Virus record (IMG/VR): IMGVR_UViG_3300037067_002514
Span: 26,044 to 90,043 of that record
DNA length: 64,000 nt
Direction: 5' to 3' (one strand)
Origin: a virus
Taxonomy: Duplodnaviria; Caudoviricetes
Position 1 is the stretch's first letter. Every line of letters begins with the position of its first letter. Below the pieces are notes generated by a model that was not told where the DNA came from, did no database searches, and was given only the letters and a program-made list of their open reading frames with translations. This document shows, in pieces, positions 9,678 through 53,621 of this stretch. The translations under genes and the position numbers were made by a program.

Positions 9678-9684
9678 TGTTCTC

Positions 9685-10718: not shown

Positions 10719-10782
10719 CTACCCCCTATTGATACAATGTACCAACCTTCTGTATTAAGTTTTATACTAATTACTGGGTAAC

Positions 10783-11469: not shown

Positions 11470-11511
11470 TTTCGGTAGCTAACCTACCCCATCTTTATAC
11501 TTATTTAAACC

Positions 11512-23888: not shown

Positions 23889-24980
23889 TTACTCACATAT
23901 AGTTAATAAAACCTTATTAGTTACTGTACCCCATAAAAACTTTTCATTTTGTGAGTTCTTCTTTACTAGAGTAGATTTATGTAGTCTATATTCCCTGTCT
24001 CTATATAACTTTTCTAGTTTATTAACCATATCCTCTAATACTATCCTATCCCCAAAGTACTTAGAATTAGGTATACACTCTTTAGTTGATTTAATATAAT
24101 CTACTGAATCCCCCCAAATATCTTTTAGATTCCCACAGTCAGTACAAAGGATGGGAACACCACTTACAGAACTCTCTAAAAGAGGAAGTGCAAAGCCCTC
24201 ACCCATAGTTGTACTACAATGTACATCAAAAGCGTTGTACATAACATTAAGGGTATAAAAATCTACATCCTCATGATTTATAAGAAGCTTATCACTTATA
24301 TTATAATACTCTGCTAAATAGTTTAGGTCATAGCACGATTCATTGCCAGCAGTATGTATTATTCCTAGTACATCATTTTTACCCATACTGAACTTTGAGA
24401 ATGCTTCTATAAATAAATCAAATCTCTTTCTATAGGTGTTAGTACCAGTTATTCCAACAACAAATGAACCAGATAGATTCATTTTATCCTTAGCATTTAT
24501 ATCCTTTTTAAACACCTCTGTATCTACCCCATGATACACTGGGGTAACCTTTCCACTATATAGTTTACCTATCTCATTAGTTGAATAGTTTGTATAGGAT
24601 AATATTGACTTTATACCTATAGTATTGAGTCTAGAAACGTCTTTATTAATTGGGGTAAAGTTAACTGGAAAGAAAGGTATAATATTTCCCCTATACTCAG
24701 TATGATCAAGATATTTTAGTATAATTCTGTCATCATTAAAAACAATTAAACAATCTGGTTCTTCTTCATCTATAACAGCCTGTAGACCACTAAAAGAGTA
24801 CAGATCACCACCATTTTTAGCTGGATAAATGTAATAAGGGTATGGGTTCCTTTTCATACCATCATACCCTATACCATAAACCACTACTATATTATCCTTT
24901 GAAAGAATATTACATATATTATGAGTAACTATAGAAAATCCACTCAAAATACATGCATCACCAACAAATAGTATTTTCAA
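23889..24980 (-). CDS. GT-B (family 4-like) glycosyltransferase, paralogue of 16632-18971
   Basis: MKILFVGD...SGFSIV, NTYRKRFD, TTMGEGFALPLLESSVSG. Confidence 0.85.
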   Translation of the reverse strand: MKILFVGDACILSGFSIVTHNICNILSKDNIVVVYGIGYDGMKRNPYPYYIYPAKNGGDLYSFSGLQAVIDEEEPDCLIVFNDDRIILKYLDHTEYRGNIIPFFPVNFTPINKDVSRLNTIGIKSILSYTNYSTNEIGKLYSGKVTPVYHGVDTEVFKKDINAKDKMNLSGSFVVGITGTNTYRKRFDLFIEAFSKFSMGKNDVLGIIHTAGNESCYDLNYLAEYYNISDKLLINHEDVDFYTLNVMYNAFDVHCSTTMGEGFALPLLESSVSGVPILCTDCGNLKDIWGDSVDYIKSTKECIPNSKYFGDRIVLEDMVNKLEKLYRDREYRLHKSTLVKKNSQNEKFLWGTVTNKVLLTICE

Positions 24981-24989
24981 AATACCCCC

Positions 24990-25472
24990 TTACACTATAA
25001 TTGACCCATAGGCTTGTCTATTATCCTTTTTTGCTTCAGATAAGGAAGCTACTGGGATATACTCTATTTTCCTCTCTACTATAACTGGATTACTAAACAA
25101 GATTTCACCACTGTCTGATATAGTATAATCTAGCTTGCATAGAAAACTTGTATTGTTAAGATACACTTCTGCTACAATGTACGTATCAAATGTGTCCATA
25201 ATCCATACCCTCTGTGTTGGTACTGGTTGATTATCAAGGTTGTCAGGAAAAAGTCTATTTAACGCTTTCTGTATTTTATTTTCTGTTTCTCTTAGACTTT
25301 CTTCACTAAACTCTGTAACCCCAGCACTAGATTCCTTCTTACTCTTTTCATACTGAACCTTACAAATAGCAATAGCACTACTCTTATTCTTACCAGTTTT
25401 CATTACAGAATCTACACAACTCTCCATGAATTTTATTGTGTTCTCGTTCTCATTTTTTATACCATATGGCAT
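24990..25472 (-). CDS. Hypothetical phage protein
   Basis: 160 aa; N-terminal MPY...MESCVDSVMKTGKNKSSAIAICK motif. Confidence 0.5.
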   Translation of the reverse strand: MPYGIKNENENTIKFMESCVDSVMKTGKNKSSAIAICKVQYEKSKKESSAGVTEFSEESLRETENKIQKALNRLFPDNLDNQPVPTQRVWIMDTFDTYIVAEVYLNNTSFLCKLDYTISDSGEILFSNPVIVERKIEYIPVASLSEAKKDNRQAYGSIIV

Positions 25473-25482
25473 TTTAAACCCC

Positions 25483-25953
25483 CTATAGTTTATTACCTAA
25501 TAATTTTGCAATAACATGACACACTTTAAGGTGCATATCCTCTGCGTATTCATACATTCCAACTTTAGTAGGAGTTAGCATAGACACATCACACATATCC
25601 ATTAACTTACCCCCATCAAATCCAACTATGGATATTGTGTATCCTATAGAACTAGCATAATTTACTGCATTGATAAGATTGGTAGAATTTCCACTAGCTG
25701 ATATAACAATTAGTACATCACCCTCTTCAAATAGTACTTTCAGTTGATCTGAGAAGATATAATCATATCCACGATCATTCCCTATCCTAGTTATATTTGA
25801 TGTACTATCACAGAGGGATATTGCCTTATACCCCCTGCTCATTAAATCATTAGCTAGGTGGGAAGCCGTTGAAGCACTACCACCATTACCTGCTATATAT
25901 ATGAACCTATCCTTTTTTAATAGCTTAACAGCATCATATACAGTTCCTAGCAA
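25483..25953 (-). CDS. gmhA: Phosphoheptose isomerase (SIS domain)
   Basis: GNGGSASTASH, RIGNDRGYDYIFSDQL, ISASGNSTN, EDMH. Confidence 0.85.
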   Translation of the reverse strand: MLGTVYDAVKLLKKDRFIYIAGNGGSASTASHLANDLMSRGYKAISLCDSTSNITRIGNDRGYDYIFSDQLKVLFEEGDVLIVISASGNSTNLINAVNYASSIGYTISIVGFDGGKLMDMCDVSMLTPTKVGMYEYAEDMHLKVCHVIAKLLGNKL

Positions 25954-26909
25954 CTAAATACCTCCTTTATTCTTGGGATATTTCTGTATATATTTCCCTC
26001 ATAGTACAAGATTATCCCTTTATAGTACGCATCTGCTATACTTCTTATACCATCCTCAACAGTATACCTACACTCAAACCCCAATACTTTTTTTATCTTA
26101 TCAGCATTAACATGATAAGACCTTAAATCATCTGATTCAACCTTGTTAATAATTATGTCATTTCCAATAACACCTCTTACTAGTTGTGCTAACTCATCTA
26201 TAGTATAGTTACTATAAAGGACATTAAAAGCCTCTGAATCAACTAAGTTCCTAGGTGCTGTAAGCATCATCTTATATACCCTAACCATATCAAGCACATT
26301 AAGAGTAGGTCTCATCTGTGAACCCCCAAATACAGTCATTTTACCCGTTGTTAGGGCACTTATAGTAAGAGCATTAACAGCTAAATCTAACCTTAACCTT
26401 GGGGAATAACCACATAAAGTTGATGGTCTAACAAATACATATTCTGTATTATTTAATTCTGCCCTAATATACTCTTCATTCATTATTTTATGAAGACCAT
26501 AAGTATCTACTGGGTCAGCTTTCTCTTCCTCTGTTACACTAACGGTTAATGGTTTAATTCCATATTGACTTGTTGAACTTGCCACTATTAATCTCTTAAT
26601 ACTGTTTATATTACAAGCTTTAACAATATTGTAAGTAGATGAATAATCTATTGACTTAGCTAAGTCAATATCTATATCACCTGGGGCACCAGTAGAAGCA
26701 AGATGTATAATAGCATCGCAACCTTCACTGTACTTAACAACTTTATCAGTATCCCTAATATCACCAATTATTTGGGTTAACCTATGATTATAAGGAAGTA
26801 TATGCCTATATATGTACATGTCATATGTAATTACATCATGCTCTTTAAGTAGCTCAGGTACTAGTATACTCCCAACATACCCTGCTCCCCCAGTAACAAA
26901 TACCCTCAT
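25947..26909 (-). CDS. NAD-dependent nucleotide-sugar epimerase/dehydratase (extended SDR)
   Basis: TGGAGYVG, SSTSQYG, YGLHK (YxxxK). Confidence 0.88.
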   Translation of the reverse strand: MRVFVTGGAGYVGSILVPELLKEHDVITYDMYIYRHILPYNHRLTQIIGDIRDTDKVVKYSEGCDAIIHLASTGAPGDIDIDLAKSIDYSSTYNIVKACNINSIKRLIVASSTSQYGIKPLTVSVTEEEKADPVDTYGLHKIMNEEYIRAELNNTEYVFVRPSTLCGYSPRLRLDLAVNALTISALTTGKMTVFGGSQMRPTLNVLDMVRVYKMMLTAPRNLVDSEAFNVLYSNYTIDELAQLVRGVIGNDIIINKVESDDLRSYHVNADKIKKVLGFECRYTVEDGIRSIADAYYKGIILYYEGNIYRNIPRIKEVFSC

Positions 26910-27877
26910 TAAATATCACCCACCTTAACTAATACTTTACCACAAAATCCACTTCTAAATGAATCTATTGCCTTATTTATACTATTAAACTCAAATAATT
27001 TAAGCTTAATTTTAGATACATCTATTATTCTAAATAAGTTATAAATATCATAGTCAGACTGTATACCACCACCCCAAGAACCTATTATTCTCTTACCTTT
27101 TATAAAATCAAATGGTTTAACATTAAAAGAATCCGATGGTGGTGGATTACCTACTAGGATGAGAGTACCATTATCTACTAATGAGTTAAATGCTTGCTCT
27201 ATTGACTTTACACTCCCTGTAGTATCTATAGCACAGTCTACTTTATCATATATATCTGTACTATCTGCCCCCAAGGTAATACCATATTTTTCCCTATCTT
27301 TATTAGTATCAGTAACATAAGTTTTAAATCCCCGATACTTTGCACCTAGGACACAGGCAGAGCCTATATTTCCCACACCATGTATCCTTATTGTTAAACC
27401 TGACGCATAGTTAAATACTGTTCCAGCACCTGTTGGTATCATACACCCAAATAGGGGTAGACTATAAAGCATTTTTTTTGGCATCTTACTTTTACCAAAG
27501 AACTTAACTAGTCTATTCTCTGGAACTATAGTATACTCTTGAAAGGTAGTTACTGCACCTGCATTATATCCCTTATATACTGGTGCATCGGCATTTAATC
27601 CATCTACCTTAATCCAAGTAATTACAACTAAATCATTATCTTTTACCTTTGATACATCCTCCCCTACCCCAATAACCTCACCAACTGCCTCATGACCAAG
27701 TAGGTGAGGTATATACTCTGAAAATTTATTACCAGATATCTCGTTTATTTGAGAACCACAAATACCTGTACATAGTACTTTTACGAGTACTTGACCTCTT
27801 TTCAATTCTGGAAGTTCAATAGAAACTATCTCTAATGGCTTATTTATCTCTGTTAATACGGCAGCTTTAGTGTACAT
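26909..27877 (-). CDS. Zn-dependent alcohol dehydrogenase (MDR family)
   Basis: CTGICGSQ, LLGHEAVGEV, GVGNIG. Confidence 0.85.
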   Translation of the reverse strand: MYTKAAVLTEINKPLEIVSIELPELKRGQVLVKVLCTGICGSQINEISGNKFSEYIPHLLGHEAVGEVIGVGEDVSKVKDNDLVVITWIKVDGLNADAPVYKGYNAGAVTTFQEYTIVPENRLVKFFGKSKMPKKMLYSLPLFGCMIPTGAGTVFNYASGLTIRIHGVGNIGSACVLGAKYRGFKTYVTDTNKDREKYGITLGADSTDIYDKVDCAIDTTGSVKSIEQAFNSLVDNGTLILVGNPPPSDSFNVKPFDFIKGKRIIGSWGGGIQSDYDIYNLFRIIDVSKIKLKLFEFNSINKAIDSFRSGFCGKVLVKVGDI

Positions 27878-27883
27878 TATATT

Positions 27884-28528
27884 TTAGGGAATAAACCAAT
27901 AAAAATCCCCTGTATAACCCTCCTCTTTAAATAATTGTTTCCACTCTTCTACACTATGAATAGTTTCAGCAGTTATGTTCCACTCTAGCATCCTTTTCTT
28001 CTCTTCTTCATTACTGTATGCATCTACAGTAATAAATGTCTTTTTTCCTATCCTCTGTATTTCCCTTACTGCCCTCCTGCATTCATCTTCTTTTAAGTTA
28101 TGAATAGTGTTAATACATATTACTAGGTCAAATGATTTATCCGAATATGGTATATTATTAACATTTGCCTGTATTGCAACTATTCCCTCTGGACAACAAT
28201 TAACTGCATACTCTGAAATATCCATACCATATAGTTTAAGGTTATTATTATGCTGTTTAAAATCATATAGCATATAACCTTTAGCCATACCACAATCAAG
28301 TATTTTATCCCCATCACCTAGATTATAGTATTCTATAAATCTTTTAGTAACAGGAATCCATCTTCCATCATAAATATATCCTCCATAGCAAATACGAGGT
28401 ACTTTCATGTCAAAGTATCTCCAATCATATAGTCTTGCTATAGCTCTCTGTTCCTCACTCTTCTCTTGTGCCCTAGTACTCGTATCCCTCTTTATCTTAG
28501 GATAATCTACTAGTAAATCTACTTCCAT
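27884..28528 (-). CDS. Class I SAM-dependent methyltransferase
   Basis: ILDCGMAKG, YGMDISEYA, SFDLVICINTIHNL. Confidence 0.85.
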   Translation of the reverse strand: MEVDLLVDYPKIKRDTSTRAQEKSEEQRAIARLYDWRYFDMKVPRICYGGYIYDGRWIPVTKRFIEYYNLGDGDKILDCGMAKGYMLYDFKQHNNNLKLYGMDISEYAVNCCPEGIVAIQANVNNIPYSDKSFDLVICINTIHNLKEDECRRAVREIQRIGKKTFITVDAYSNEEEKKRMLEWNITAETIHSVEEWKQLFKEEGYTGDFYWFIP

Positions 28529-28529
28529 T

Positions 28530-29339
28530 CTAACCTTCCTTTTTCATTTTATAACAATACTCTGCTGTAGGAAATACACCACTTCTTACCTCACTAGCAT
28601 ATTCCATAAAAGCCTTCTTTATTTGTTCAGATATGTTTACATATCTCTTTGCAAACTTAGGTTTGAATCCTTCAAAGGTACCTAATAGATCACTAGATAG
28701 TAATAATTGACCATCAACATATTGACCAGCACCAATACCATATACTGGAATACTTAATCTTTCTGTTATTATCTTTCCAGTTTCTGCTGGAACCCCCTCT
28801 ACTAATAATATTGAAGCCCCTGCCCTCTCTACTGCCTTAGCATCATCAACAAGAATCTCTGCTGACTCTTGAGTATTCCCTTGTACTTTAAATCCACCCA
28901 TCTGGGATGAACTTTGAGGTGTAAGACCAATATGACCTATAACTACCATACCAGAATCCACTATACCCTCTATTTGAGGTGCTACTCTTTTACCCCCTTC
29001 TAGTTTAATAGCATCAACCCCCAATCTATAGAATTTACCAGCATTCTCTATTGCTGATTCTACAGATTTTTGATATGACATAAAAGGCATATCCCCTACT
29101 ACAAAGGTGTTAGGGGCAGCCCTTCTTACTGCTTCTGTATGATACAACATTTGTTCCATAGTTACAGGCATTGTACTTGGGTACCCATATATTATCATAC
29201 CTACTGAATCACCTACTAGAATCATATCTAATCCTGCTTGTTCTGCTAGGCTGGCTGTAGAATAATCATAAGCTACTACCCATGTAACCTTTTCCTTAAC
29301 TTCCTTCATTTTTACTAGGTCTAGTATACTTTTCTTCAT
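28530..29339 (-). CDS. panB: 3-methyl-2-oxobutanoate hydroxymethyltransferase (PanB family)
   Basis: AYDY, ILVGDSVG, VVGDMPFMSY, IKLEGG, GHIGLTPQ, GIGAG...DGQLL. Confidence 0.9.
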   Translation of the reverse strand: MKKSILDLVKMKEVKEKVTWVVAYDYSTASLAEQAGLDMILVGDSVGMIIYGYPSTMPVTMEQMLYHTEAVRRAAPNTFVVGDMPFMSYQKSVESAIENAGKFYRLGVDAIKLEGGKRVAPQIEGIVDSGMVVIGHIGLTPQSSSQMGGFKVQGNTQESAEILVDDAKAVERAGASILLVEGVPAETGKIITERLSIPVYGIGAGQYVDGQLLLSSDLLGTFEGFKPKFAKRYVNISEQIKKAFMEYASEVRSGVFPTAEYCYKMKKEG

Positions 29340-31352
29340 TTATAGCCCCCCTTTATTAAATACTTCCCAATTTTCAATTAACCACTTATCAGTCTCTAGT
29401 ATTCCCTCTTCTAGGCTAACTGTAGAATTCCAACCTAATTCACTATTGGCTAAACTAGAATCCATATTGTAGTCTAAGTCCTTACCTCTTCTATCTGGTG
29501 AATTAGTTACTAAATTATTAAAATTATATCCAGTTAAGTAACAAGTAAATTCAACTAATTCCTTTACACTAAGGTATTCAGAACCAGAGAAGTGATATAC
29601 TTTGTCATGCTTACCAGTATTAACCAAGTCTATAATTCCTTTTGCCACATCTTTACGATGAACAAAAGATCTCCTAGTTTCACCATTACCATCTAATCTA
29701 AGTATACCACAATTATGTATTGTTGTCAAAGTTTTTGGGACTATTCTGAATAGTTGTTGGCATGAACCATATATATTAGCAAATCTGGATAGGACATAGG
29801 GGAATCTATATTGTTTGTACATAACTTCTAAGTACATATCAAATGCTGCTTTAGAGTTGTGACTAATAATATCTTGTTCTATAATATAATTATGATTATC
29901 CGCAACTTCTATGTCAATTACATCACCACAATAATTACTTAATAAAGGTTTATCTATTGGTTGCCAAACTATATTACCTTCATTTGTTCTTTGAGATTTA
30001 ATGATAGGACATGGTTTATTATAAAGCTTCAAACTTGGTATAGTATCAAAAAATAATCCTACAGATTTAGAGTCTGTTATTATTACCTTATCACCATTTA
30101 TATATGAATAAATACCCAAACGAGATAGTAAATACTTTATCTGTCTAATTAATACAGGAGAATGAGACCCAAATTCTAGTTTATTATTACAATAGCAACC
30201 ATCTGCATCAAAATATCCCCCTAAAAATTCCTTAATATTATCTATAGAATTATTAATAATTTCTTGTGGTAGTACTTTATTAACCGCTTTCTTATCTAAT
30301 CCTAGACTCTGTATTTGTCTAACTAAAGAAATATCCCCTTTGTAAGCATACCAACAATTTTTACTTTTGTGTTTTAATAAATACCCACCACCTATTAAAT
30401 TTATATAATATTCAACAAAATCTTTTTTTTCGTCTGCTAATGTTATGGTTTGTTGTCTAGTAGTAGTTATGTTTTTACTTCCCTTTTTAATATAACCATC
30501 ACCTACAAAATAACCTAAAAATCTGTTAAAACTAGCATTGAAATAATTAGTAATATCTCCATAATTTTCTCTGGTTGTAGCTACCCAATCTCCCTTCTGC
30601 AACTCCTTAGCAGTAACCCAAGTGGTGTTCAATGCCCCAATATCTTGGCGATAATCTAATTTATTGTTGTATCTTTTAGGTCTTTTGACTAAAAATTTAT
30701 GGTTGGGGGTACACCTTATTTTTCTATTTCTTATGTTGACTTCTAATAATTCTTTACAATTATACTTAAAAACATTGGTTACATTTTTTGATTCTACCTT
30801 ATTAGTAAGAGTATTTATACTTTGAACTAAGTCTCCAATAACAATATCTTTTATTGCTTTTTCTGTTCCATTTGACAGTAAAACTAAAGTATCTGGATGT
30901 AGACATGCAGCATAAGGAGTAGTAGGGTTATATATTTTTGACTCTTTGAACAGTTTAGGTTTGTTTCCATAAACTTCTGGAGTTGATGAGTGAATAAACT
31001 TCTGTAAATAAGTTTGAGTATTGAGATATTGTACTATTCTAACTAATGCTGAACAATTAACATCAAAGTAATCACTAGGATAATCCCAACTATCATCAAC
31101 TATACCTAATGCTATAAAGTTTAGAACAATAGTGGGTCTTATTCTATCTATAAGGTCTTTAATAGCCTCAAAATCTTCCACTATGTCATAGTGGTACTCT
31201 TTGAAGTTATCTAACTTAGGGTTAGCACTATAGGGTTTAAACATATTATGATTTACTGTTCTCCCTATACCTACAACTTGATATCCTTCGGTTAAAAGGG
31301 CATCAACAGCTATACCACCCATATAAGAGCTACTACCTAATACTAATATCAT
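29340..31352 (-). CDS. NDP-sugar 4,6-dehydratase-like extended SDR with intein (320 aa spliced)
   Basis: HSSTPEVYG; spliced catalytic motif TPYAA/SK; SRFANIYG; RRSFVH. Confidence 0.85.
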   Translation of the reverse strand: MILVLGSSSYMGGIAVDALLTEGYQVVGIGRTVNHNMFKPYSANPKLDNFKEYHYDIVEDFEAIKDLIDRIRPTIVLNFIALGIVDDSWDYPSDYFDVNCSALVRIVQYLNTQTYLQKFIHSSTPEVYGNKPKLFKESKIYNPTTPYAACLHPDTLVLLSNGTEKAIKDIVIGDLVQSINTLTNKVESKNVTNVFKYNCKELLEVNIRNRKIRCTPNHKFLVKRPKRYNNKLDYRQDIGALNTTWVTAKELQKGDWVATTRENYGDITNYFNASFNRFLGYFVGDGYIKKGSKNITTTRQQTITLADEKKDFVEYYINLIGGGYLLKHKSKNCWYAYKGDISLVRQIQSLGLDKKAVNKVLPQEIINNSIDNIKEFLGGYFDADGCYCNNKLEFGSHSPVLIRQIKYLLSRLGIYSYINGDKVIITDSKSVGLFFDTIPSLKLYNKPCPIIKSQRTNEGNIVWQPIDKPLLSNYCGDVIDIEVADNHNYIIEQDIISHNSKAAFDMYLEVMYKQYRFPYVLSRFANIYGSCQQLFRIVPKTLTTIHNCGILRLDGNGETRRSFVHRKDVAKGIIDLVNTGKHDKVYHFSGSEYLSVKELVEFTCYLTGYNFNNLVTNSPDRRGKDLDYNMDSSLANSELGWNSTVSLEEGILETDKWLIENWEVFNKGGL
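29856..30905 (-). mobile_element. Intein with LAGLIDADG endonuclease (350 aa) in the SDR YxxxK motif
   Basis: PYAA/CLHPDTLV...CTPNHKF...FLGYFVGDG...FLGGYFDADG...DIEVADNHNYIIEQDIISHN/S. Confidence 0.93.
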
Positions 31353-31353
31353 T

Positions 31354-32733
31354 TTACCTCTTTAGTAGTGTCTTAGAGTATTCTAATAAATCCTTCTTAG
31401 ACACACTCCTCTTATTTCCAGAATAGGATACCTTTATAGCACCAGCTACACAACCTATAAAACCTACAAGTTCAATGGGGGCATCTACACACATTAATGG
31501 GGACGTTATAGAAAAGAAAGCATCTCCAGCACCAACTGTATCAATAACATTACTAGTCAAAGATGGAATAGTATTATTATAAGCTATACATCCCCTTTCT
31601 CCAGTAGTTATTATTGAAGTTTTTGGTAACTCATTTTGTATAATAATTGATAAGTTATCATCTCTCTCATACTTCTCATGCACTGCTAATCTTAATTCAT
31701 CCTCATCTATACAAATGTATATATTATCTTTCCTATCCCAATATTTTCTAATAGTATTATGCCCCATATTACCAGCATTTCTTTGTGTTGCTACTGCTAA
31801 ATATTTAGCCTTATTCTTTATTAAGTCCCTAACATTCCTAGTTAATAATCCATGTCCAAAATCTGCTACTATTACTAGGTCATAGTCTCTAATGCACTTA
31901 TCTAATGAGTTATGTATAAAAGGCTGGTGTTCACTATATTCATAGGTCTCAAATAATTTTTGATTACCTTCAATATACCTCTTTTTTGTAATAGTACTGG
32001 AATCTACTATATTAACGGTATTAACAAAGGAAGATAGGTGATTTCGTATTGCCCATGAACCCCCTAGATATTCCTCTTTGTTACCCAATTCAAAGGCAAC
32101 TATTGGTGATTTACCCGACTTACCTATTGAATGCCCATATTGGTATATATCTAAAATACTTTCACTAACTACTAGTACTTTTAATTCCTCTATTCTCTTT
32201 ATCCAATCATAAATATCAATATAAGAATATGGAAACTTATTTAAGTACTCTACTGTGTTTTCAGGAAGGCTCATACTATTTATAATCTTAGAAGAACTAA
32301 ATACTTCACCACCAGTAAATACTATTTTACCCCCAACTGAATGTATTGCCTCTTCTTCCTTTGTTATTGCATCATTATCTAGACCTTTATACTCTATACC
32401 CTTAACGTATATGTTTGGTTTAACTAATCTTATTGTTTCAACAGCAGTCTCATATTCATTTACAGCTACATAATCAACTATAGATAGATTTGATAGTAAT
32501 CTTGCTCTTATACTATCTGTAAACATAGGTCTATTAAAGCCTTTATTAACAAACTTATCCTGAGTAACAGTTACTACTAGAATATCCCCTTTTGATTTTG
32601 CCTCCTCAAAGTGTTTTAAATGCCCCATATGTAGTATATCAAATACACCATGACATAATACTACAGTCATTCCTTTACTCTTTAATTCTTCTACTTTATC
32701 AGAGAGTTCACTTAAACTCAATACCTCACTCAT
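31354..32733 (-). CDS. Bifunctional nucleotidyltransferase (N-terminal) + PfkB-family sugar kinase (C-terminal), HldE/RfaE-like with reversed domain order
   Basis: HGVFDILHMGH (HxGH), YVKGIEY, FSSSKII; DFGHG; DTVGAGDAFF. Confidence 0.85.
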   Translation of the reverse strand: MSEVLSLSELSDKVEELKSKGMTVVLCHGVFDILHMGHLKHFEEAKSKGDILVVTVTQDKFVNKGFNRPMFTDSIRARLLSNLSIVDYVAVNEYETAVETIRLVKPNIYVKGIEYKGLDNDAITKEEEAIHSVGGKIVFTGGEVFSSSKIINSMSLPENTVEYLNKFPYSYIDIYDWIKRIEELKVLVVSESILDIYQYGHSIGKSGKSPIVAFELGNKEEYLGGSWAIRNHLSSFVNTVNIVDSSTITKKRYIEGNQKLFETYEYSEHQPFIHNSLDKCIRDYDLVIVADFGHGLLTRNVRDLIKNKAKYLAVATQRNAGNMGHNTIRKYWDRKDNIYICIDEDELRLAVHEKYERDDNLSIIIQNELPKTSIITTGERGCIAYNNTIPSLTSNVIDTVGAGDAFFSITSPLMCVDAPIELVGFIGCVAGAIKVSYSGNKRSVSKKDLLEYSKTLLKR

Positions 32734-34388
32734 GCTAGTTTTTCTCCAAACTTTACTACTTGTGATATCCTATGGGTATCTGGTATTATAACATTACAAA
32801 ATACTGGGTCATTTCCCTTTAATACTCTTTTAATGGTATCTTTTATATCCTTATTGAGTATAACTTCTTCTGTTCTTATCCCATAAGCCTTAGATACCTC
32901 AGTAAAATTAGGAAAACCAATATCATTATAAGCTGAGGCTGTATACCTAGAACCTAACCAATCATCTTGAGTCTGTTTCATCATTGAGTACCCATTATTA
33001 TTAATATTAAATACCTTAATAGGAATATTTAGTAACCTTATTGTGGATAGCTCTTGAATGTTCATTTGTAAAGCACCATCCCCCATTGTAGCTATAATCT
33101 TTTTCCCACTAGCGTAATGTGCCCCTATAGCTGCTGGTAAACACCAACCCATTGATGTATTATTAAAATCTGAGTAAATCCTTTGCTTTTTAAACATGAA
33201 TGATTGCATTAACCATACTAAAGAACTTCCAGTATCACCAAGTATTAAATCATCATCATTAACAAACTTAGATAGGTTATAGAAGAATATACTAGGGTCA
33301 ATGGTGTATGTATAACCATATATATTAGCATAAGCTTGTTTCCAAGAATTAATAGTACAATGCCACTCTAGTATATTATTTAGTTTAAACTTATATGCAT
33401 TTAGCCCAATAGTAAATAATTTCAAATCACAGGATATACCTATAGTTGGATTACTTTTATCAGCCTCACATGAGTCTATATCCACTATAATCTTTTTAGC
33501 CTTTGGTGCAAAATCAGAAGGTCTACTCCCTATCATATGACTATCTAGCCTACTACCTAGCACAAGTAATAAATCAGCATTTTGTACTGTAAGATTTCCT
33601 ACTTTTGAGCCATGTTGCCCAAAATATCCAGCATTTAAAGGATGATTGTAAGGTAGTAATCCTGTAGCCCCCCAAGTCTGTAATACAGGTATTTGTAGTT
33701 TATCTACTAAGGTAAGTACCTCTTTCTCTGCTTTAGATAAAAATACCCCACTACCTAGAATTAAAGCTGGTCTCTTAGCCCTAGTTAACTCATAAATAAC
33801 ATTGTTAATATTGGGGATAGAAAGATCAAGGTATACTTCTGGTACATAGCACTCTAATTTTGAAACATCTACATCCATTCTTTGTATATCATCTGGTATA
33901 TCCACTAGTACAGAACCTTTTCTTCCTTCTTGTGCAATATATACTGCTTTTTGAAGTTCATATTTGATCTTATAAGGGTCTATAACAGTAACTGCATACT
34001 TAGTTACTGGTTTAAAAATACTAACAACATCAGTCTCTTGAAAACCAAGTTGTCTAACTCCACTAGTACCCTTCATCCTTGAAGTAGTAACTTGCCCAGT
34101 TATTGCTAGTAAGGGAATAGAGTCATAATATGCCCCTGCTACCCCAGTTAGCAAGTTAGTAGCACCTGCCCCACTTGTAGCTATACATACCCCTATATTA
34201 CCAGATACTCTAGAATAACCATCGGCAGCCATAGCAGAAGCCTGTTCATGATTATTACAAACATAACTTAATTTTTTACTCTTTGATATAGAGTCTACTA
34301 GGTGTAATACTGCCCCACCATTAACTAGGAACACTTTAGTTACTCCTAAGTTCTCTATAAATTTAACAACAAAGTCAGATACTTTCAT
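32730..34388 (-). CDS. ThDP-dependent enzyme (acetolactate synthase/YerE-like), copy 2
   Basis: HEQASAMAADGY, TSGAGATN, GDGALQMNIQEL...NNNGY. Confidence 0.88.
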   Translation of the reverse strand: MKVSDFVVKFIENLGVTKVFLVNGGAVLHLVDSISKSKKLSYVCNNHEQASAMAADGYSRVSGNIGVCIATSGAGATNLLTGVAGAYYDSIPLLAITGQVTTSRMKGTSGVRQLGFQETDVVSIFKPVTKYAVTVIDPYKIKYELQKAVYIAQEGRKGSVLVDIPDDIQRMDVDVSKLECYVPEVYLDLSIPNINNVIYELTRAKRPALILGSGVFLSKAEKEVLTLVDKLQIPVLQTWGATGLLPYNHPLNAGYFGQHGSKVGNLTVQNADLLLVLGSRLDSHMIGSRPSDFAPKAKKIIVDIDSCEADKSNPTIGISCDLKLFTIGLNAYKFKLNNILEWHCTINSWKQAYANIYGYTYTIDPSIFFYNLSKFVNDDDLILGDTGSSLVWLMQSFMFKKQRIYSDFNNTSMGWCLPAAIGAHYASGKKIIATMGDGALQMNIQELSTIRLLNIPIKVFNINNNGYSMMKQTQDDWLGSRYTASAYNDIGFPNFTEVSKAYGIRTEEVILNKDIKDTIKRVLKGNDPVFCNVIIPDTHRISQVVKFGEKLA

Positions 34389-35252
34389 TTACCAACCTTT
34401 CCTTTTATTAGGGTATGATCTACACCTACATTTACAAGTATTACACTCTTGGGTATTTAATAAGGATAAACCCTCATCTATCAGGTAATCTATACTATTG
34501 AAATCATTGTTATTTATACAGTCTATAACCTTTACATAATTACTCTTTAGAATGTACCCCCACCATACAGTTATAAAATGTTCAACGTTATACCCCATTA
34601 GCTTAAAAAACTGGTCATAATCCTCTCTTAAATACCTTGAAAAGTGATCTCCCCCTAATAAAGGTGTATCAGTATTACATTTATGTGATATAGGGCGAAC
34701 ATTAGCCCACACACTCCACATGTGATTTAGCATAGTTTCATATGACATTAGAAGTTCTAGATTGTAGTATGTATCACCCCCATACTTTTCTACTGTATCC
34801 TTATAAGCCTTATATAAAAATGAATTACAGGGGGATAGTCTTGAAAAGTACCCACTATTGTAAATATCCATTCCAAAACCAAATTTCTGAGCACTATTAT
34901 TTGTGATTATGTTTCCCCAAGGTATTGATATACCCCAAATCCTAGACTTATCTACACTATCCCAAGATTTAACAAGGTAATCATACCACTCTCTGTAGAA
35001 TACAACATCACTATGAGCATAAGCTATTATGTCATACTCTCTAGTAAATGCTTTAAACCCCTTATATATCAGGGTATCAGTAGGACTAATATTGTCAATC
35101 TTTACAAAGTTTATCCTATCACTGATGTTGCACTCTTTATTGTGGGATACTACATAAATATCTTGATCATAACTACTATCTAGAAGTGTCCTGATACACT
35201 CTTTATATGTTTCAGTAGGTGCAACTACAGGTATTATTAAAGCAGTATTCAT
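34389..35252 (-). CDS. GT-A (family 2-like) glycosyltransferase
   Basis: ALIIPVV, YDIIAYAHSDVVF; glycan-cluster context. Confidence 0.55.
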   Translation of the reverse strand: MNTALIIPVVAPTETYKECIRTLLDSSYDQDIYVVSHNKECNISDRINFVKIDNISPTDTLIYKGFKAFTREYDIIAYAHSDVVFYREWYDYLVKSWDSVDKSRIWGISIPWGNIITNNSAQKFGFGMDIYNSGYFSRLSPCNSFLYKAYKDTVEKYGGDTYYNLELLMSYETMLNHMWSVWANVRPISHKCNTDTPLLGGDHFSRYLREDYDQFFKLMGYNVEHFITVWWGYILKSNYVKVIDCINNNDFNSIDYLIDEGLSLLNTQECNTCKCRCRSYPNKRKGW

Positions 35253-35929
35253 TATTTAACACCTACCCCAACTGCAAATAGATAGTGAGCCATATTTGAA
35301 TAACCAGTATGGACAACTTCATCATTCATTGAAAACATAAGTACATTCTCATAGAATCTACTCATCAGATTCTTAAGTGATTTATAATCCTTTAGGTTTA
35401 TATGCTGAACCTCACTTACTTTAGAGGCATACATACTAGCTGACAAGTTAGGTGTACCCATTACATATATACCATTATACTTCAAACTATTTGCTATATT
35501 ATACATAAATTTATCTTCTTTAGACTTATCAAGATGTTCAATAACGTCTATAGAATAAGCACCATCAAACTTTGTGTAACCAGTATCAACGTATAAAGAT
35601 GAGGTACTCATATCATGTACTTTGAACTCAATATTACCTATTGCTTTAAGCCTTTCTTTATTACTCTCTATTAGCCTTCTTTCAGGGTCTATTGCAAGTA
35701 TATACTTAGCTTCTTTAGCTACTATAGGTACCCCAAAACCATCCCCTGCACCTACTTCTAGGATATCCCTCTTTCCTTCCAACATCCTAGATACAAACTT
35801 ATATCTAGATAGTACAAAGCACATATGCTTAGGGTCATTTAACAGGCTATAGGAAGTCCATGAGCCTAGTTTTATCCCCTCTACAAATTGATCTTTGGTA
35901 CCCTCTTTATATGCTTCTTCCTGATTCAT
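35252..35929 (-). CDS. Class I SAM-dependent methyltransferase
   Basis: ILEVGAGDGFG, FDGAYSIDVIEHL, GTPN. Confidence 0.85.
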   Translation of the reverse strand: MNQEEAYKEGTKDQFVEGIKLGSWTSYSLLNDPKHMCFVLSRYKFVSRMLEGKRDILEVGAGDGFGVPIVAKEAKYILAIDPERRLIESNKERLKAIGNIEFKVHDMSTSSLYVDTGYTKFDGAYSIDVIEHLDKSKEDKFMYNIANSLKYNGIYVMGTPNLSASMYASKVSEVQHINLKDYKSLKNLMSRFYENVLMFSMNDEVVHTGYSNMAHYLFAVGVGVK

Positions 35930-37671
35930 TATTCTCCTACCATAAGTCTTTTTAACTCTTCCCTGTCAAGATATGGACACATATCCTCTAAAGGTCTATG
36001 AGAAAAGGTACCATTACCATTATCTATGAAACCCATTGATGGTGTAACCTTTTGTTCTGGTGATACCATTATCTCACAAATACAAGGGTTATTATCTGAC
36101 ATCATTTCTCTTATAGCGTCTATTGACTCAGCATCATTATTAACTCGTATTACTCTAATTCCATACGCTTTACCAACTTTTCTATAGTCTGGAAGAGATA
36201 ACCTCCCTTCAACAGAAGAACCTATATATCTCTTATCTAAGAAAGATTCTTGGGTATGCCTTATAGCTAAATAACCTTCATTATTAAACACCACTATTTT
36301 AATAGGTAAACAATGCTCTACTATAGTTTGTAATTCTTGTATGTTGAATTGAAAACTACCATCACCAACCATGCAGACTATTCTATACCCATTTGAAGCA
36401 AAGCAAGCCCCTATACTTTCAGGTAATCCAGTACCCATTGGTGCTTGGGAAGCTGAAACAATAAGTCTACTACCTTGTCTTAGGTTAATAGCTTGATTAG
36501 ATATGTACAAGGCAGTACCACCACCATCAACAGCATATGAAGATTTATACTTTGATAACTCTTCTATAAAATTGTAAGGATTAACCCAAGTATAATCAAT
36601 AGTGTTACTACTTACCTTATTATATCCTTTATAGGTATTACATTGGGAACGCCAAACTGAATTATCCTTACTAGGTAGAGATATACAATTAAGAAAATAG
36701 TTAGCATCACTAAGAACTTTAAGATCAACCTTTAGATAGTTGTAGTTTAATTCCACTTGATCAATATCAACTACTACTTTTTTAGCTTTAGGTGCAAATC
36801 CCTCTATATTTGTAGATGTTATATTAACCCCTAGATGAGAGCCTATTGATATTAATAAGTCACAATTCTGTATAGCTAAATTAGCTCCCCTGTTACCAGC
36901 TATACCAATTAATCCGATATTTAGGGGATGATAATCATATACTAAATCATGAGAATTCCAAGAGTACACAAAGGGTATCTTATTATCCTCTATAAAATTC
37001 CTAAAACTATCGGCAGCACCAGAAAGTCTTATTCCAGCACCAGCTAGAATTAAAGGTCTCTTTGCTTCACTATATAACTTGCTTAAAGCATCTGACGGAA
37101 TGGTATACATTTTTAAAGATGGCTTAACATATTGTTCTAGTGAATCTACATTTATATCCATCATTTGAAAGTCTAATGGGATATCTACCCAAACAGGACT
37201 TTTCCTACCATTAGTAGCTAGATAAAGTGCTTTGTCTAGGTAATACTTTATCTTTTTAGGATTATCAACTGTCACTGCATACTTAGTAATTTTACTTACT
37301 AGGGAAGTGATATCAAATTCCTGACTACCTAGTTGTCTAATGCCCTTACCTTGGGAAGTGAAGGAATATCTGGATTGTCCAGATATTACTAGAAGTGGAA
37401 TTGAATCAGTCCATGCGGATAATACCCCTGTTAGTGCATTTGTACCACCTGGGCCAGTTGTGACAATACAAACCCCAATATTGTTATTTATCCTTGCATA
37501 TCCACCAGCAGCTAAAGATGCGGCTTGTTCATGGTGCATAAATACTGGCTTTATATCAACCTTACTAATTGAATCAAATATATGTACTGCACCACCACCA
37601 GTAACACCAAATACAGTGTTAACTTTACATTCTTCTTTTATATACTTAGCAACAAAATCAGTTAGTTTCAT
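35929..37671 (-). CDS. ThDP-dependent enzyme (acetolactate synthase/YerE-like), copy 1
   Basis: HHEQAASLAAGGY, TTGPGGTN, GDGSFQFNIQEL...FNNEGY. Confidence 0.88.
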   Translation of the reverse strand: MKLTDFVAKYIKEECKVNTVFGVTGGGAVHIFDSISKVDIKPVFMHHEQAASLAAGGYARINNNIGVCIVTTGPGGTNALTGVLSAWTDSIPLLVISGQSRYSFTSQGKGIRQLGSQEFDITSLVSKITKYAVTVDNPKKIKYYLDKALYLATNGRKSPVWVDIPLDFQMMDINVDSLEQYVKPSLKMYTIPSDALSKLYSEAKRPLILAGAGIRLSGAADSFRNFIEDNKIPFVYSWNSHDLVYDYHPLNIGLIGIAGNRGANLAIQNCDLLISIGSHLGVNITSTNIEGFAPKAKKVVVDIDQVELNYNYLKVDLKVLSDANYFLNCISLPSKDNSVWRSQCNTYKGYNKVSSNTIDYTWVNPYNFIEELSKYKSSYAVDGGGTALYISNQAINLRQGSRLIVSASQAPMGTGLPESIGACFASNGYRIVCMVGDGSFQFNIQELQTIVEHCLPIKIVVFNNEGYLAIRHTQESFLDKRYIGSSVEGRLSLPDYRKVGKAYGIRVIRVNNDAESIDAIREMMSDNNPCICEIMVSPEQKVTPSMGFIDNGNGTFSHRPLEDMCPYLDREELKRLMVGE

Positions 37672-38473
37672 CCCTCACCTTCCAGTTATTAAAACTTCTC
37701 CTTAATTTATACATATCTGGTTCTTCTAGTAGCTTATCCCTAAGTAATCCATATCCCCAACAGTCATTCACTACAGAAAAATTCCTTCCACCAGATACTG
37801 TTTTCCCTTCTTTACAAAGCCAAGTAATACATTTATATATATTATCAAAGCTAGTTCCAGTACCTTTTTCTAAGAACTTTTGGGTCTCTATATGCTTTTC
37901 TGAATTTACTGGTGTATTTTCTAATATAAGGTTATGAGTTTTAGTCTTAGTCCATCCTACACCAACTGTAAAAAAGTTGGTATTAGTATCTTCATTGTCT
38001 AGAAACTCACACATTTTAATAAGCATCAACTTAGAGATAGTATACGCAGAGAAGTCTTTTACTGCATTATTAACACCACCGCCAGAGAAAAATACTACAT
38101 TTGGTCTTGATGATCTCAATGGGTATAATCTATGAAGGAGTCTAAGTTGGTTTATAGCATTTGTATTTACTGACTCTTCCCAAGCATTAAAATCCGATTT
38201 AAAGAAAGGTTCTATAGGAAGAGGATTACAAGGACATAGTATCAAGGTATCCCACCTATAATAAGGTATTAACTTAAGAGAGTTTATAAACCCATCTACA
38301 CTATCCTTAGAATTTATATCACATGGTAATACCATAAATGGCATCCTTACCTTAGACCTAGATGTCCCTATAACTGAATCACCATTGTTTGTAAACCTTA
38401 ATGATAACTCCCTTCCTATATCACTAGATACAGATATAATTAGTATATTACTCAAATGAATAATTCTCCTCAT
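37658..38473 (-). CDS. Short-chain dehydrogenase/reductase
   Basis: IISVSSDIG (degenerate Gly-rich loop), FSGGG, SAYTISK (YxxxK). Confidence 0.75.
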   Translation of the reverse strand: MRRIIHLSNILIISVSSDIGRELSLRFTNNGDSVIGTSRSKVRMPFMVLPCDINSKDSVDGFINSLKLIPYYRWDTLILCPCNPLPIEPFFKSDFNAWEESVNTNAINQLRLLHRLYPLRSSRPNVVFFSGGGVNNAVKDFSAYTISKLMLIKMCEFLDNEDTNTNFFTVGVGWTKTKTHNLILENTPVNSEKHIETQKFLEKGTGTSFDNIYKCITWLCKEGKTVSGGRNFSVVNDCWGYGLLRDKLLEEPDMYKLRRSFNNWKVRDETN

Positions 38474-39482
38474 TTTTACCTGATATTACTGGTCTTATAC
38501 CTAAGTTAATATCAGAACCACCTAACTGCTTTATCCTTTCCTTTTCCCCAACTCTGGATAGTATACTAACACTAGAGGTATCATACCCCTCATATTTTTT
38601 AGGTAACCCTAAATTATTAAATGGGACATTAAACTTATGGTTAACATAATTATCACCACCCCATTTATCTATTAAGTAGTCATTCCTTCTTCTATCAATT
38701 ACTGGAACTACACCCTCATATAATGTTCTACTCCAGAATTCAAATACAACAGAGGAAGGTAGCATATAGCATTTCTGATTCATGATCTTAGCTCTTACAG
38801 CATGATCAAAGTCAACAGCATATATAGGATAAAAATTAACATCCCAATATCCTACTGTTTCAAAGTACTTATACTTATATATTCTATGACCTGGAACAAA
38901 CCAACAGTTATCTCCCATTGATAGGACTTCATGCTTTGGTAAGTCTTTAGAAAGGTCTTTAATAAGAATGTCAACAAATTCCTGTCCTGTGGATTCTATA
39001 AGAGAGTAGTAATCACCTGGAGACCATGTAGCCATAGTACTTGCATTAAGGGATATCCTATTACCACCTTTAAAGTACTTTCTTAAATCTGGGTTAACTG
39101 CAAGATAATAGGGACTCCACCTAGAATCACCAGAAATAACAGAATATGGTGTCTCTTCTGCACCCTTTACTAGCTCATCTATTGTATTAGGAAGAAAGAT
39201 CATATCATTAGCAAAAGCTACTAGGTAGTTGTCCTTATTGTTCTTCCAAGCATAGTCATACATTATATTACAGCAATAAGGAACACCCATATTTTGACCA
39301 TTCTCAATAAGGGTTACATTCTGTGTTTTTAGCCACTCTTGAGTTCCGTCAATAGAACCATTATCTATAACAAGTATCTCATAAGGATATGAGCACTTTA
39401 TAGAATTAAGACACAGTTTAGTATACTTTAAATTGTTAAATGTTACAAAAGATATTATTACTTTCAAGTACCTTACCCCCAA
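38448..39482 (-). CDS. GT-A (family 2) glycosyltransferase (probable TTG start at 39467)
   Basis: ISFVTFNN...EILVIDNGSIDGT...FANDMIF...GYWDVNF...DFDHAVRA. Confidence 0.85.
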   Translation of the reverse strand: MGVRYLKVIISFVTFNNLKYTKLCLNSIKCSYPYEILVIDNGSIDGTQEWLKTQNVTLIENGQNMGVPYCCNIMYDYAWKNNKDNYLVAFANDMIFLPNTIDELVKGAEETPYSVISGDSRWSPYYLAVNPDLRKYFKGGNRISLNASTMATWSPGDYYSLIESTGQEFVDILIKDLSKDLPKHEVLSMGDNCWFVPGHRIYKYKYFETVGYWDVNFYPIYAVDFDHAVRAKIMNQKCYMLPSSVVFEFWSRTLYEGVVPVIDRRRNDYLIDKWGGDNYVNHKFNVPFNNLGLPKKYEGYDTSSVSILSRVGEKERIKQLGGSDINLGIRPVISGKNEENYSFE

Positions 39483-39515
39483 GTTTATGTATGTTTTAAT
39501 TCCTACTCTATATTA

Positions 39516-39543
39516 ATTATACCACACTTTTTGTATTTTGCAA
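39516..39543 (-). promoter_or_regulatory. Sigma70-type promoter at the head of the glycan cluster
   Basis: TTGCAA (39543-39538)-16 bp-TATAAT (39521-39516) with TGTGG extension. Confidence 0.6.
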
Positions 39544-39546
39544 TAG

Positions 39547-39577
39547 TATAGGGTAAGTTTACTAGACTTACCCTATA
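39547..39577. terminator. 12-bp hairpin immediately after the portal stop
   Basis: TATAGGGTAAGT-N7-ACTTACCCTATA; no clear U-tract on the minus strand. Confidence 0.45.
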
Positions 39578-39579
39578 TT

Positions 39580-53195: not shown

Positions 53196-53621
53196 TTATA
53201 TCCCTGTACTACCAAACCCACCCTCACCTCTATCTGTAACAGAAAGTTCTTCAACTTCCCCAAATGTTAAAGGAATAACTTCTTTAAGTTCACACTGAGC
53301 TACTCTATCCCCAATATTTATGTGGGCTATATCAATACCTATATTACGAAGTATTATCTTTACCTCCCCACGAAAATTAGCATCTATAGTGCCTGGGCTA
53401 TTAAGGATTATAATATTCTTTGAGGATAGACCACTTCTAGGTATAACCTTCAAGCAGTACCCTTTAGGAATCTCTACAGCTAATCCAGTACCTACTTTAA
53501 TGGTATCACTAGGGAATAGCATGTGATACTCTGATGCATATAGATCAAAACAGGCATCATCTTCATGTGATTTTGTAGGTTCCTTGGCATTTTCATTAAT
53601 CTTCTTATATTTTACTAGCAT
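53196..53621 (-). CDS. dut: Trimeric dUTPase
   Basis: ACFDLYA, PRSGLS, GTIDANFRGEV, RGEGGFGSTG. Confidence 0.95.
   Translation of the reverse strand: MLVKYKKINENAKEPTKSHEDDACFDLYASEYHMLFPSDTIKVGTGLAVEIPKGYCLKVIPRSGLSSKNIIILNSPGTIDANFRGEVKIILRNIGIDIAHINIGDRVAQCELKEVIPLTFGEVEELSVTDRGEGGFGSTGI

Follow-up and report, generated by a model that had tools for sequence, protein, structure and literature searches.

Enzymes of the YerE type have been shown to equip 4-keto-deoxysugars with longer acyl branches; their donors are functionalised 2-oxo acids from an aldolase of the same cluster, and a reductase and sometimes an S-adenosylmethionine (SAM) methyltransferase follow (Steitz et al., PMC9306805). 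The clusters treated in that work are those for erwiniose (ErwI/J/E/F), caryophyllose (MMAR_2331-2333) and gastriose (MygI/MyGE/MygF), one from R. palustris with a methyltransferase, and the yersiniose A pair YerE/YerF. Here we analyse a cluster of related composition in a virus record, IMGVR_UViG_3300037067_002514 (Caudoviricetes). The window, which is the whole stretch of 64,000 nucleotides under study, comprises bases 26044-90043 of this 90,043-bp linear IMG/VR record (CheckV completeness 56%) and carries an island with two thiamine diphosphate (ThDP) carboligases, a ketopantoate hydroxymethyltransferase (PanB) and heptose-type activation genes. We consider it reasonably probable that the island makes a carbon-branched, methylated heptose-type nucleoside diphosphate (NDP) sugar for the glycosyltransferases (GTs) of the phage, the acceptor being most likely virion proteins.

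As in the YerE scheme, a carboligase with an adjacent reductase, a candidate maker of the 2-oxo acid, methyltransferases, keto-deoxysugar genes and GTs are found in one cluster. The locus departs from that scheme in its phage host, in GmhA/HldE-like activation instead of a CDP-3,6-dideoxyhexose set, in a dehydratase with an intein, in having PanB in place of a pyruvate aldolase and in its two carboligases of different clades.

Enzymes of the island and the route they suggest

All real genes of the window lie on the minus strand. The first-pass annotation had described positions 23889-39482 as 15 contiguous, largely coupled genes forming one sugar pathway, and the 15 minus-strand open reading frames (ORFs) do exist there, each overlapping the next by 1-26 nt or lying 0-10 nt from it (Table 1). 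The pathway proper is nevertheless smaller than these 15 genes: it consists of the 13 genes at 25483-39482, in the head-morphogenesis operon between the portal and a conserved head-module gene, the 160-aa ORF and the GT4 that follow being part of the head module of the lineage. The family names first given to the genes hold wherever Pfam, NCBIfam or motif matches exist; the 160-aa ORF, listed as a hypothetical, is a conserved head gene and not a pathway enzyme. Catalytic and cofactor motifs are intact wherever they were inspected (both ThDP enzymes, the nucleotidyltransferase-kinase fusion, the short-chain dehydrogenases/reductases (SDRs), the Zn-dependent dehydrogenase (Zn-ADH), the methyltransferase MT1 and the GT4).

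The two carboligases, ThDP1 and ThDP2, both retain the catalytic glutamate (HEQ) and the cofactor motif GDG-X-NN and would, by these features, be classed as YerE-like. The best PDB match of ThDP1 is by a wide margin JanthE (8rph, 7.5e-110), a YerE-like aldehyde-ketone carboligase, and this match, together with the intact motifs, bears out the earlier suggestion of a coherent nucleotide-sugar pathway with YerE-type C-branching. ThDP2 matches 5ahk best (1.1e-82), about level with plant acetohydroxyacid synthase (AHAS). Homologues of ThDP1 at 50-55% identity number thousands in anaerobic environmental bacteria and archaea, and in the tree it falls in an all-bacterial clade of 12, sister to a Spirochaetota locus (L011). 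ThDP2 belongs to a clade of 16 (support 1.0), 12 of them viral and 8 of these linked to PanB. The tblastn matches of ThDP2 in cultured phages were set aside: they are only ilvB genes at about 30%, and their annotation and the names of the organisms suggest stretches of host DNA in phage records.

Several partners of ThDP1 can be recognised by their company in bacterial genomes. The SDR next to it, with YxxxK at residue 144 and a 14-nt overlap with the start of ThDP1, has homologues (39-48% identity) beside MT1 and ThDP1 in loci L002, L007 and L061, and this context makes it a candidate for the NAD(P)H reductase that partners the carboligase. MT1 homologues (47-56% identical) adjoin those of ThDP1 in L002, L007, L011 and L061. 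Both methyltransferases of the block are of the class-I SAM type, and homologues of the second, MT2 (44-51% identity), are paired with Zn-ADH in six bacterial loci (L004, L005, L007, L009, L011 and L061).

PanB condenses 2-oxoisovalerate with methylene-tetrahydrofolate to give ketopantoate. In this block it is the sole candidate for making a functionalised 2-oxo acid, there being no pyruvate aldolase, and it is likely that its role, better explained through the scheme of PMC9306805, would be to supply the keto-acid donor of a side chain. Its Pfam match spans positions 2-258 of 259 and its score lies above the equivalog cut-off. The protein is 63-74% identical to metagenome PanBs, some of them named Chloroflexi metagenome-assembled genome (MAG), and is nested among these (support 0.97); in a sample of 401 genomes the highest PanB identity is 62%, which makes a Chloroflexota donor or host a weak clue at most. 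A metagenome scan with PanB returned only relatives of ≤64% identity, on contigs of 36-57% GC, and the nearest of the contigs read had no sugar genes. Judged from its sequence, PanB is a separate acquisition that has been compositionally ameliorated.

The nucleotidyltransferase-kinase fusion, in which a cytidylyltransferase-like domain is joined to a PfkB kinase, has HldE as its best NCBIfam match (NF008454, 1.9e-35), also matches rfaE_dom_II (5.8e-31) and rfaE_dom_I (4.9e-14), contains the motifs HMGH (HxGH) and DTVGAGD (DTxGAGD), and has a full-length homologue of 36% identity in the bacterial locus L061. It would act like HldE but is no HldE equivalog. Homologues of the GmhA-like isomerase sit with this fusion and the dehydratase in L011, L061 and a complete phage, L083. 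As for the epimerase, it scores 56.8 bits against the HldD model TIGR02197 (heptose_epim; cut-off 274.6) and 76.7 against galE, also below the cut-off.

The dehydratase combines T124-P-E126, which aligns with the T-S-E of GDP-mannose 4,6-dehydratases and not with the Ser-Ala-Thr of GalE, with a YxxxK motif that is complete only after splicing, and is thus a keto-deoxysugar enzyme of the 4,6-dehydratase type. Its intein (about 349 aa; N-terminal Cys, C-terminal His-Asn, +1 Ser) interrupts this catalytic motif between Y147-A-A and S-K, so that only the spliced protein can be active; dehydratase activity is therefore predicted to require splicing. The joined exteins (321 aa) are colinear from end to end with intein-free bacterial dehydratases (35-40% identity). 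The E1/E3 genes of the known CDP-3,6-dideoxy pathways were absent from the Pfam and NCBIfam scans of the block.

From these genes we infer substrates, step order, nucleotide carrier, product and acceptor as follows. The GmhA-like isomerase and the HldE-like kinase/nucleotidyltransferase would activate a heptose from sedoheptulose 7-phosphate, with the GmhB step supplied by a host phosphatase, and the epimerase and the spliced 4,6-dehydratase would convert it into a 4-keto-6-deoxyheptose nucleotide. One or both of the YerE-like carboligases could then put acyl branches on keto carbons, the donor, most probably that of ThDP2, being a hydroxymethylated 2-oxo acid made by PanB, either ketopantoate or a compound close to it. 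Reduction of the resulting ketones by the SDR and Zn-ADH and methylation by MT1 and MT2 would follow, and finally the two GT-A enzymes of the island and two GT4s of the head and neck module would attach the sugar to an acceptor in the cytoplasm, most probably proteins of the virion. The first-pass annotation called the product doubly branched: two carboligases are indeed present, and double branching itself is possible. A bolder version, which we regard as doubtful, is that the product is a sugar so far not known from nature, a methylated 6-deoxyheptose with two ThDP-installed C-branches (one of them derived from ketopantoate), whose synthesis is gated by splicing of the dehydratase, and that the GT4s of the lineage coat virions with strain-specific glycans from swapped cassettes.

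Linkage of these genes in other genomes was examined by searching 80 bacterial or archaeal and 80 viral loci around ThDP-type genes with the 15 phage proteins, and most of the set recurs in bacteria. Two MAG loci, L061 (uncultured bacterium) and L011 (Spirochaetota), have 9-10 of the 15 genes each, sharing the epimerase, the GmhA-like isomerase, the HldE-like fusion in its swapped order, the dehydratase, MT2, Zn-ADH, ThDP1, MT1 and the SDR. Sub-sets of the block are found in L002, L004, L005, L007 and L009, and L002 has both carboligase types, the ThDP2-type enzyme at 43% identity. In L061, a BphJ-type acylating acetaldehyde dehydrogenase and a DmpG/BphI-type 4-hydroxy-2-oxovalerate aldolase directly precede the ThDP1 homologue (8084-9993), and an E1 alpha/beta ThDP enzyme lies between the HldE-like gene and the dehydratase (3255-5271), at the place that ThDP2 occupies in the phage. 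The whole L061 cluster appears to be uncharacterised.

Nor is the phage block a one-off among viruses: at least 110 contigs of IMG/VR carry YerE-like enzymes. In the 80 viral loci a dehydratase is nearby in 53 and GmhA-like or HldE-like genes in 5-7, and PanB lies within 10 kb of a ThDP2-type enzyme in 10, several times adjacent to it. A heptose-plus-ThDP cassette is also present in L083 (IMGVR_UViG_3300020123_000077), a complete phage of 62.7 kb that has terminal repeats and a terminase match, where a radical SAM/SPASM protein, an SDR, a nucleotidyltransferase, a PfkB kinase, an SIS protein, a DJ-1/PfpI protein, a ThDP enzyme, an intein-bearing radical SAM protein and a GT2 form the cluster. 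The ThDP carboligase of L083 carries a 184-aa N-terminal extension. Taken together, these sequence comparisons indicate that the island is a mosaic of a bacterial-type heptose/ThDP1 module, a ThDP2 from a mostly viral clade and a PanB of separate origin.

A variable slot in the head operon

The record is that of an uncultured large tailed phage, with a tape measure, an intein-bearing portal, a multi-intein terminase-like protein, NrdD/NrdG and dUTPase among the markers in the window. The phage is probably virulent, and the CheckV value (56% for 90 kb) suggests a full genome of near 150 kb. No cultured phage matched the block in a Megablast search. Relatives were gathered from IMG/VR with the C-terminal half of the portal and then with an alignment of a 321-aa head protein. 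Single-protein scans of IMG/VR with ThDP2 and with the head protein returned nothing. Eleven related contigs were obtained, with head-protein identities of 63-69%; G410 (149,053 bp), G412 (138,618 bp) and G414 (133,760 bp) have direct terminal repeats and G411 (152,753 bp) is 99% complete.

The gene order common to these phages is terminase, portal, a variable stretch, the 160-aa gene, GT4, the 185-aa, 203-aa, 186-aa and 321-aa head proteins, a phosphoesterase, a second GT4, neck and tail genes and the tape measure. What differs is the slot between the portal and the 160-aa gene. Here it measures 14 kb and holds the 13 genes of the island. In the complete relative G410 it is about 11 kb long (L167 11605-21260) and encodes an asparagine-synthase-like amidotransferase, SDRs, a GDP-mannose 4,6-dehydratase (430 bits), a TylC3-type sugar C-methyltransferase, three further methyltransferases, a B12 radical SAM protein and a GT2; for none of these enzymes was a homologue found in this window, and they make the G410 island a candidate for a second phage pathway, to a C-methylated deoxyhexose. 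In L176 the slot is only 4 kb. The records of five relatives contain no ThDP enzyme, and only two of them an SDR epimerase/dehydratase. The slot is a variable glycan island with different cargo or none, and not a chimera.

At the upstream border, where the first-pass annotation placed the portal, that label is supported by phrog_2739 and by G410, whose intein-free portal is 60% identical over the C-terminal half. At the other end it had named a prohead protease, a label of the 185-aa ORF that is unconfirmed. This protein gave no PHROG or Pfam match and no match of its profile in PDB, and its AF2 model has a pLDDT of 31; in an alignment from nine phages its residues His75 and Ser125, which lie at a distance of 50 residues, do not vary, a pattern that we take to be compatible with an HK97-type prohead serine protease. 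A ClpP/S49-type protease elsewhere in the window (53615-54193, minus strand), about 11.5 kb upstream of the portal, beside dUTPase and NrdG and outside the head module, matches PHROG 'head maturation protease' families (phrog_94, 1.7e-25) and could be either the actual prohead protease or a protease with no relation to it. The 321-aa protein, for which PDB and cultured phages gave no match, is a candidate major capsid protein from its position only.

Homologues of the 160-aa border gene lie directly upstream of head genes in six related phages. Its model has three helices and a beta sheet (pLDDT 66) and is not that of an HAD phosphatase, the BFVD fold search gave nothing significant, and there are only weak leads to prohead-protease-related families. 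As a candidate for GmhB this ORF was rejected, on account of no TIGR00213 match, a fold that is not HAD-like and its conservation with head genes.

All four GTs that had been counted in the window are present: the island GT2, the GT-A-like protein of 287 aa, the head-module GT4 and the intein-bearing GT4 of the neck region. The head-module GT4 is 39-45% identical and at the same position in L170, L172, L174, L176 and L178 and absent in G410, and is a lineage gene (five of the six relatives covering the position) and not island cargo; the exteins of the neck GT4 are 52-64% identical to intein-free proteins in the nine relatives covering the region. The island GT2 has a weak homologue (27% identity) at the opposite end of the island of G410. 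For the 287-aa ORF there was no sequence match in Pfam, NCBIfam, PHROG or PDB, and its feature-nearest Atlas clusters are viral; its modelled fold makes it a probable glycosyltransferase, as a lead and not as proof.

Further inteins of this phage split, among others, its terminase-like gene. The one in the dehydratase is only about 25% identical to the others. In G410 (L167, L169) the terminase-like protein (523 aa against 1418 aa here), the portal, the neck GT4 and a 521-aa protein are intein-free, and the exteins of the genes at window positions 15076-18971 and 39580-46345 are 37-70% identical to them; because these counterparts lack inteins, those of this phage fill alleles that are empty in G410. 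The spacer between portal and GT2 contains a hairpin and then, on the coding strand, TTGCAA-16-TATAAT with a TG extension, and the island may have its own promoter there, given these consensus matches only; in the same scan the overall count of promoter and terminator sites was not above that in shuffles.

Table 1. Features of the island, its borders and the neighbouring head genes (positions in the window)
Feature	Position	Strand	Evidence
Portal with intein, upstream island border	39580..42108	-	phrog_2739 1.8e-9 (residues 584-808); Hint/LAGLIDADG
Portal-GT2 spacer, 97 bp	39483..39579	-	Hairpin with 16-bp stem and promoter-like site (consensus scan)
GT2 (GT-A) glycosyltransferase, first island gene	38448..39482	-	PF00535 2e-11; no transmembrane segment
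Short-chain dehydrogenase, candidate YerF/ErwF-type branch reductase	37658..38473	-	adh_short just below cut-off (26.3 vs 27)
ThDP1, YerE/JanthE-like ThDP carboligase	35929..37671	-	Three TPP domains, ~1e-33 per domain
SAM methyltransferase MT1, partner of ThDP1	35252..35929	-	Methyltransf_25/12/11; SAM motif I present
GT-A-fold protein, 287 aa, probable glycosyltransferase	34389..35252	-	Atlas model against GT-A/GT2 folds, TM 0.62-0.72
ThDP2, second YerE/AHAS-like carboligase	32730..34388	-	Three TPP domains, ~1e-33 per domain
Nucleotidyltransferase (N-terminal)-PfkB kinase (C-terminal) fusion, HldE-like, domain order swapped	31354..32733	-	NCBIfam
NDP-sugar 4,6-dehydratase-type SDR with intein, 670 aa	29340..31352	-	GDP_Man_Dehyd/Epimerase, Intein_splicing and LAGLIDADG_3
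Intein, residues 150-498, two LAGLIDADG blocks	29859..30905	-	Inside dehydratase ORF
PanB, ketopantoate hydroxymethyltransferase type	28530..29339	-	TIGR00222 313.7 bits (cut-off 207.55)
SAM methyltransferase MT2	27884..28528	-	Methyltransf_11 4e-14
Zn-dependent medium-chain dehydrogenase/reductase (Zn-ADH)	26909..27877	-	ADH_N and ADH_zinc_N; GxGxxG present
SDR sugar epimerase/reductase	25947..26909	-	PF01370 1.4e-34; GxxGxxG and YxxxK
SIS-domain isomerase, GmhA-like, 156 aa, last island gene	25483..25953	-	SIS_2 8.5e-14
Head-module protein, 160 aa, downstream island border	24990..25472	-	33-40% identical in six related phages
GT4 (GT-B) glycosyltransferase	23889..24980	-	PF00534; phrog_2170 3e-31; EX7E motif
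Head-module protein, 185 aa	23286-23843	-	Alignment from nine phages with invariant His75 and Ser125
Second GT4, intein-bearing, neck region	16632..18971	-	Glycos_transf_1, intein, LAGLIDADG; phrog_2170 1.3e-32

Acceptor and alternative readings

The GTs of this phage are linked to structural genes, as two conserved GT4s lie in the head and neck module. Transmembrane segments are absent from every protein of the block and from all GTs, and the coding strand of the 90-kb contig encodes no multi-transmembrane protein, the only candidate being a 67-aa ORF with two such segments. A search for a tyrosine integrase found none in this phage or in four near-complete relatives. Because of the absence of multi-transmembrane proteins, the retention of the GT4s among head and neck genes and the absence of a tyrosine integrase, we would favour virion proteins over the host surface as the acceptor.

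A number of observations weigh against the synthesis of a heptose-type branched sugar for the virion. The scores of the heptose genes are low, with 122 bits (cut-off 521) and a reversed domain order for the HldE match and 108 bits (cut-off 209) for the GmhA-like protein against TIGR00441, and no GmhB was found in the 90-kb contig (TIGR00213, E≤0.1), so that the route, first described as near-complete, would leave this step to the host. PanB is cellular in type, falls outside the monophyletic clade of ten other viral PanBs and is not adjacent to ThDP2, lying two genes away; since it is of cellular type and set apart from ThDP2, it could simply make ketopantoate for coenzyme A (CoA) synthesis. 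The frequency of PanB in the bacterial loci (0 of 80) is biased, as these loci were chosen by likeness to ThDP1, and the PanB-linked contigs are called viral by the IMG/VR classification alone; matches to Terminase_6C, NCLDV capsid or Gp23 were not found in these fragments, where such a result is uninformative. Lipid-linked molecules, too, serve soluble GTs as acceptors, and the completeness of the contig is only about 56%.

These last points bear on the best-surviving alternative, in which the same sugar would be put on a lipopolysaccharide (LPS), capsule, S-layer or teichoic-acid glycan of the host, blocking superinfection or adsorption to debris. We think this unlikely, though worth keeping in view. 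Soluble GT2 and GT4 enzymes commonly use undecaprenyl-linked acceptors, and the closest gene sets (L061, L011, L007 and L002) come from bacteria, in which clusters of this kind as a rule serve the synthesis of glycans on the cell surface; LPS and lipooligosaccharide are known to contain branched sugars of this sort (PMC9306805). However, no flippase, polymerase, ligase, polyprenyl-phosphate GT or multi-transmembrane protein was found in the 90 kb, the GT4 genes are conserved in the head and neck module across the lineage with the island itself in the late structural operon, and the lack of a tyrosine integrase in the phage and its four near-complete relatives makes a classical lysogenic conversion improbable.

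That the enzymes serve primary metabolism, with PanB acting in pantothenate and CoA synthesis, the ThDP enzymes in branched-chain amino acid synthesis and the remainder as a separate, ordinary NDP-sugar set, is very improbable. PanB does exceed the equivalog cut-off and resembles PanBs that are apparently cellular, and both ThDP enzymes match NCBIfam acetolactate synthase models at 1e-104 to 1e-117. With 348 and 393 bits, however, they fall short of all acetolactate synthase cut-offs (538), ThDP1 is far nearer to JanthE than to any AHAS, and neither PanC nor IlvD was found in the 90-kb contig; a biosynthetic acetolactate synthase (IlvB/I/G) was rejected for these reasons. The company of the genes also argues against this reading: ThDP1 homologues travel with methyltransferase, SDR and heptose genes in bacteria, PanB with ThDP2-type enzymes and dehydratases in viral contigs, and here all are translationally coupled inside one sugar operon.

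We give still less credence to the transfer of the NDP-sugar onto modified bases of the phage DNA, as an evasion of restriction. GTs that glycosylate phage DNA with diverse glycans are known (as cited in a passage of PMC12619734), and nucleotide metabolism is strongly represented in the phage (NrdD/NrdG and dUTPase); on the other side, a search of the 90 kb of this incomplete contig turned up no ThyA-type pyrimidine hydroxymethylase, and the GTs lie among head and neck genes and not among replication genes. Lastly, an assembly chimera or recently captured, decaying host DNA, which the first-pass annotation had named among the findings that would refute its proposal, has the high identity of PanB to cellular PanBs in its favour and nothing else, and its chance is negligible because both flanks are syntenic with complete relatives that carry cargo in the same slot, the ORFs and catalytic motifs are intact, every island gene has a third-position GC content (GC3) of 0.19-0.29, with GC and GC3 within the range of the phage core genes, and the dehydratase intein is of a kind found in those core genes.

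Comparison with known systems

Several groups of known loci can be compared with this island. Bacterial MAG clusters resemble it in having ThDP1, MT1, SDR, MT2 and Zn-ADH at 35-56% identity and, in L061 and L011, also GmhA, an HldE-like enzyme, dehydratase and epimerase; they differ in that they have no PanB within 10 kb, no intein and a cellular context, and L061 has the BphI/BphJ pair and the E1 alpha/beta enzyme. The aldolase pair before the ThDP1 homologue of L061 corresponds to ErwI/ErwJ before ErwE in the erwiniose cluster, and the phage has PanB instead. The many bacterial loci with the ThDP1, methyltransferase, SDR, Zn-ADH and heptose set are themselves uncharacterised. In viruses, the PanB and ThDP cassettes (L141, L145, L147-L152, L154 and L160) likewise combine a ThDP2-type carboligase with PanB and a 4,6-dehydratase, but there PanB is adjacent and belongs to a separate viral clade, and the ThDP1/MT1/SDR and MT2/Zn-ADH modules are missing.

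Giant viruses of eukaryotes offer a functional parallel, as the fibrils of Mimivirus and the capsid glycans of chloroviruses are built with virus-made unusual nucleotide sugars and transferases, although the sugars are others (viosamine, bacillosamine, rhamnose). We know of no ThDP-dependent C-branching in those viruses. In full-text literature searches, no publication came up that connects YerE-like enzymes or PanB with sugar pathways of phages.

Should the island work as proposed, tailed phages would resemble giant viruses in their capacity to encode whole routes to exotic sugars, and 'pantothenate' (PanB) and 'acetolactate synthase' auxiliary metabolic genes in viromes would be glycan genes, so that viral metabolic potential would have to be read differently. 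The YerE-type scheme would be extended to a heptose core and a donor supplied by PanB, with two new ketone-accepting carboligases for biocatalysis. The placement of the island would suggest that a glycan of the virion or of a surface is under diversifying selection, and would provide a concrete system for the study of phage glycan shields.

Among cultured phages, the Synechococcus siphovirus S-CBS4 (L261, record 9161-12282) has the order portal, hypothetical, GT4, galactosyltransferase and methyltransferase, with protease and major capsid protein further on, and the head-module GT4 of our phage is 27% identical over its full length to the GT4 that follows the portal there. Being cultured, S-CBS4 is tractable for the study of virion glycosylation by GT4s of family phrog_2170. 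Phage GTs glycosylate capsid and tail-tube subunits in mycobacteriophages (Freeman et al. 2023, as cited in a passage of PMC12619734). S-CBS4 and the mycobacteriophages have transferases only and use host sugar nucleotides, whereas here a 13-gene donor pathway is present as well. A glyco-cassette at the portal-protease junction therefore has a precedent in S-CBS4, and for a full donor-sugar pathway at that position we found none. What sets this phage apart is that PanB and ThDP are combined with genes for heptose activation and with a second carboligase module, one of bacterial type, the PanB being of separate origin; the location of the whole in a hypervariable slot of the head operon, in a defined lineage with conserved GT4s; and the intein in the catalytic motif of the dehydratase.

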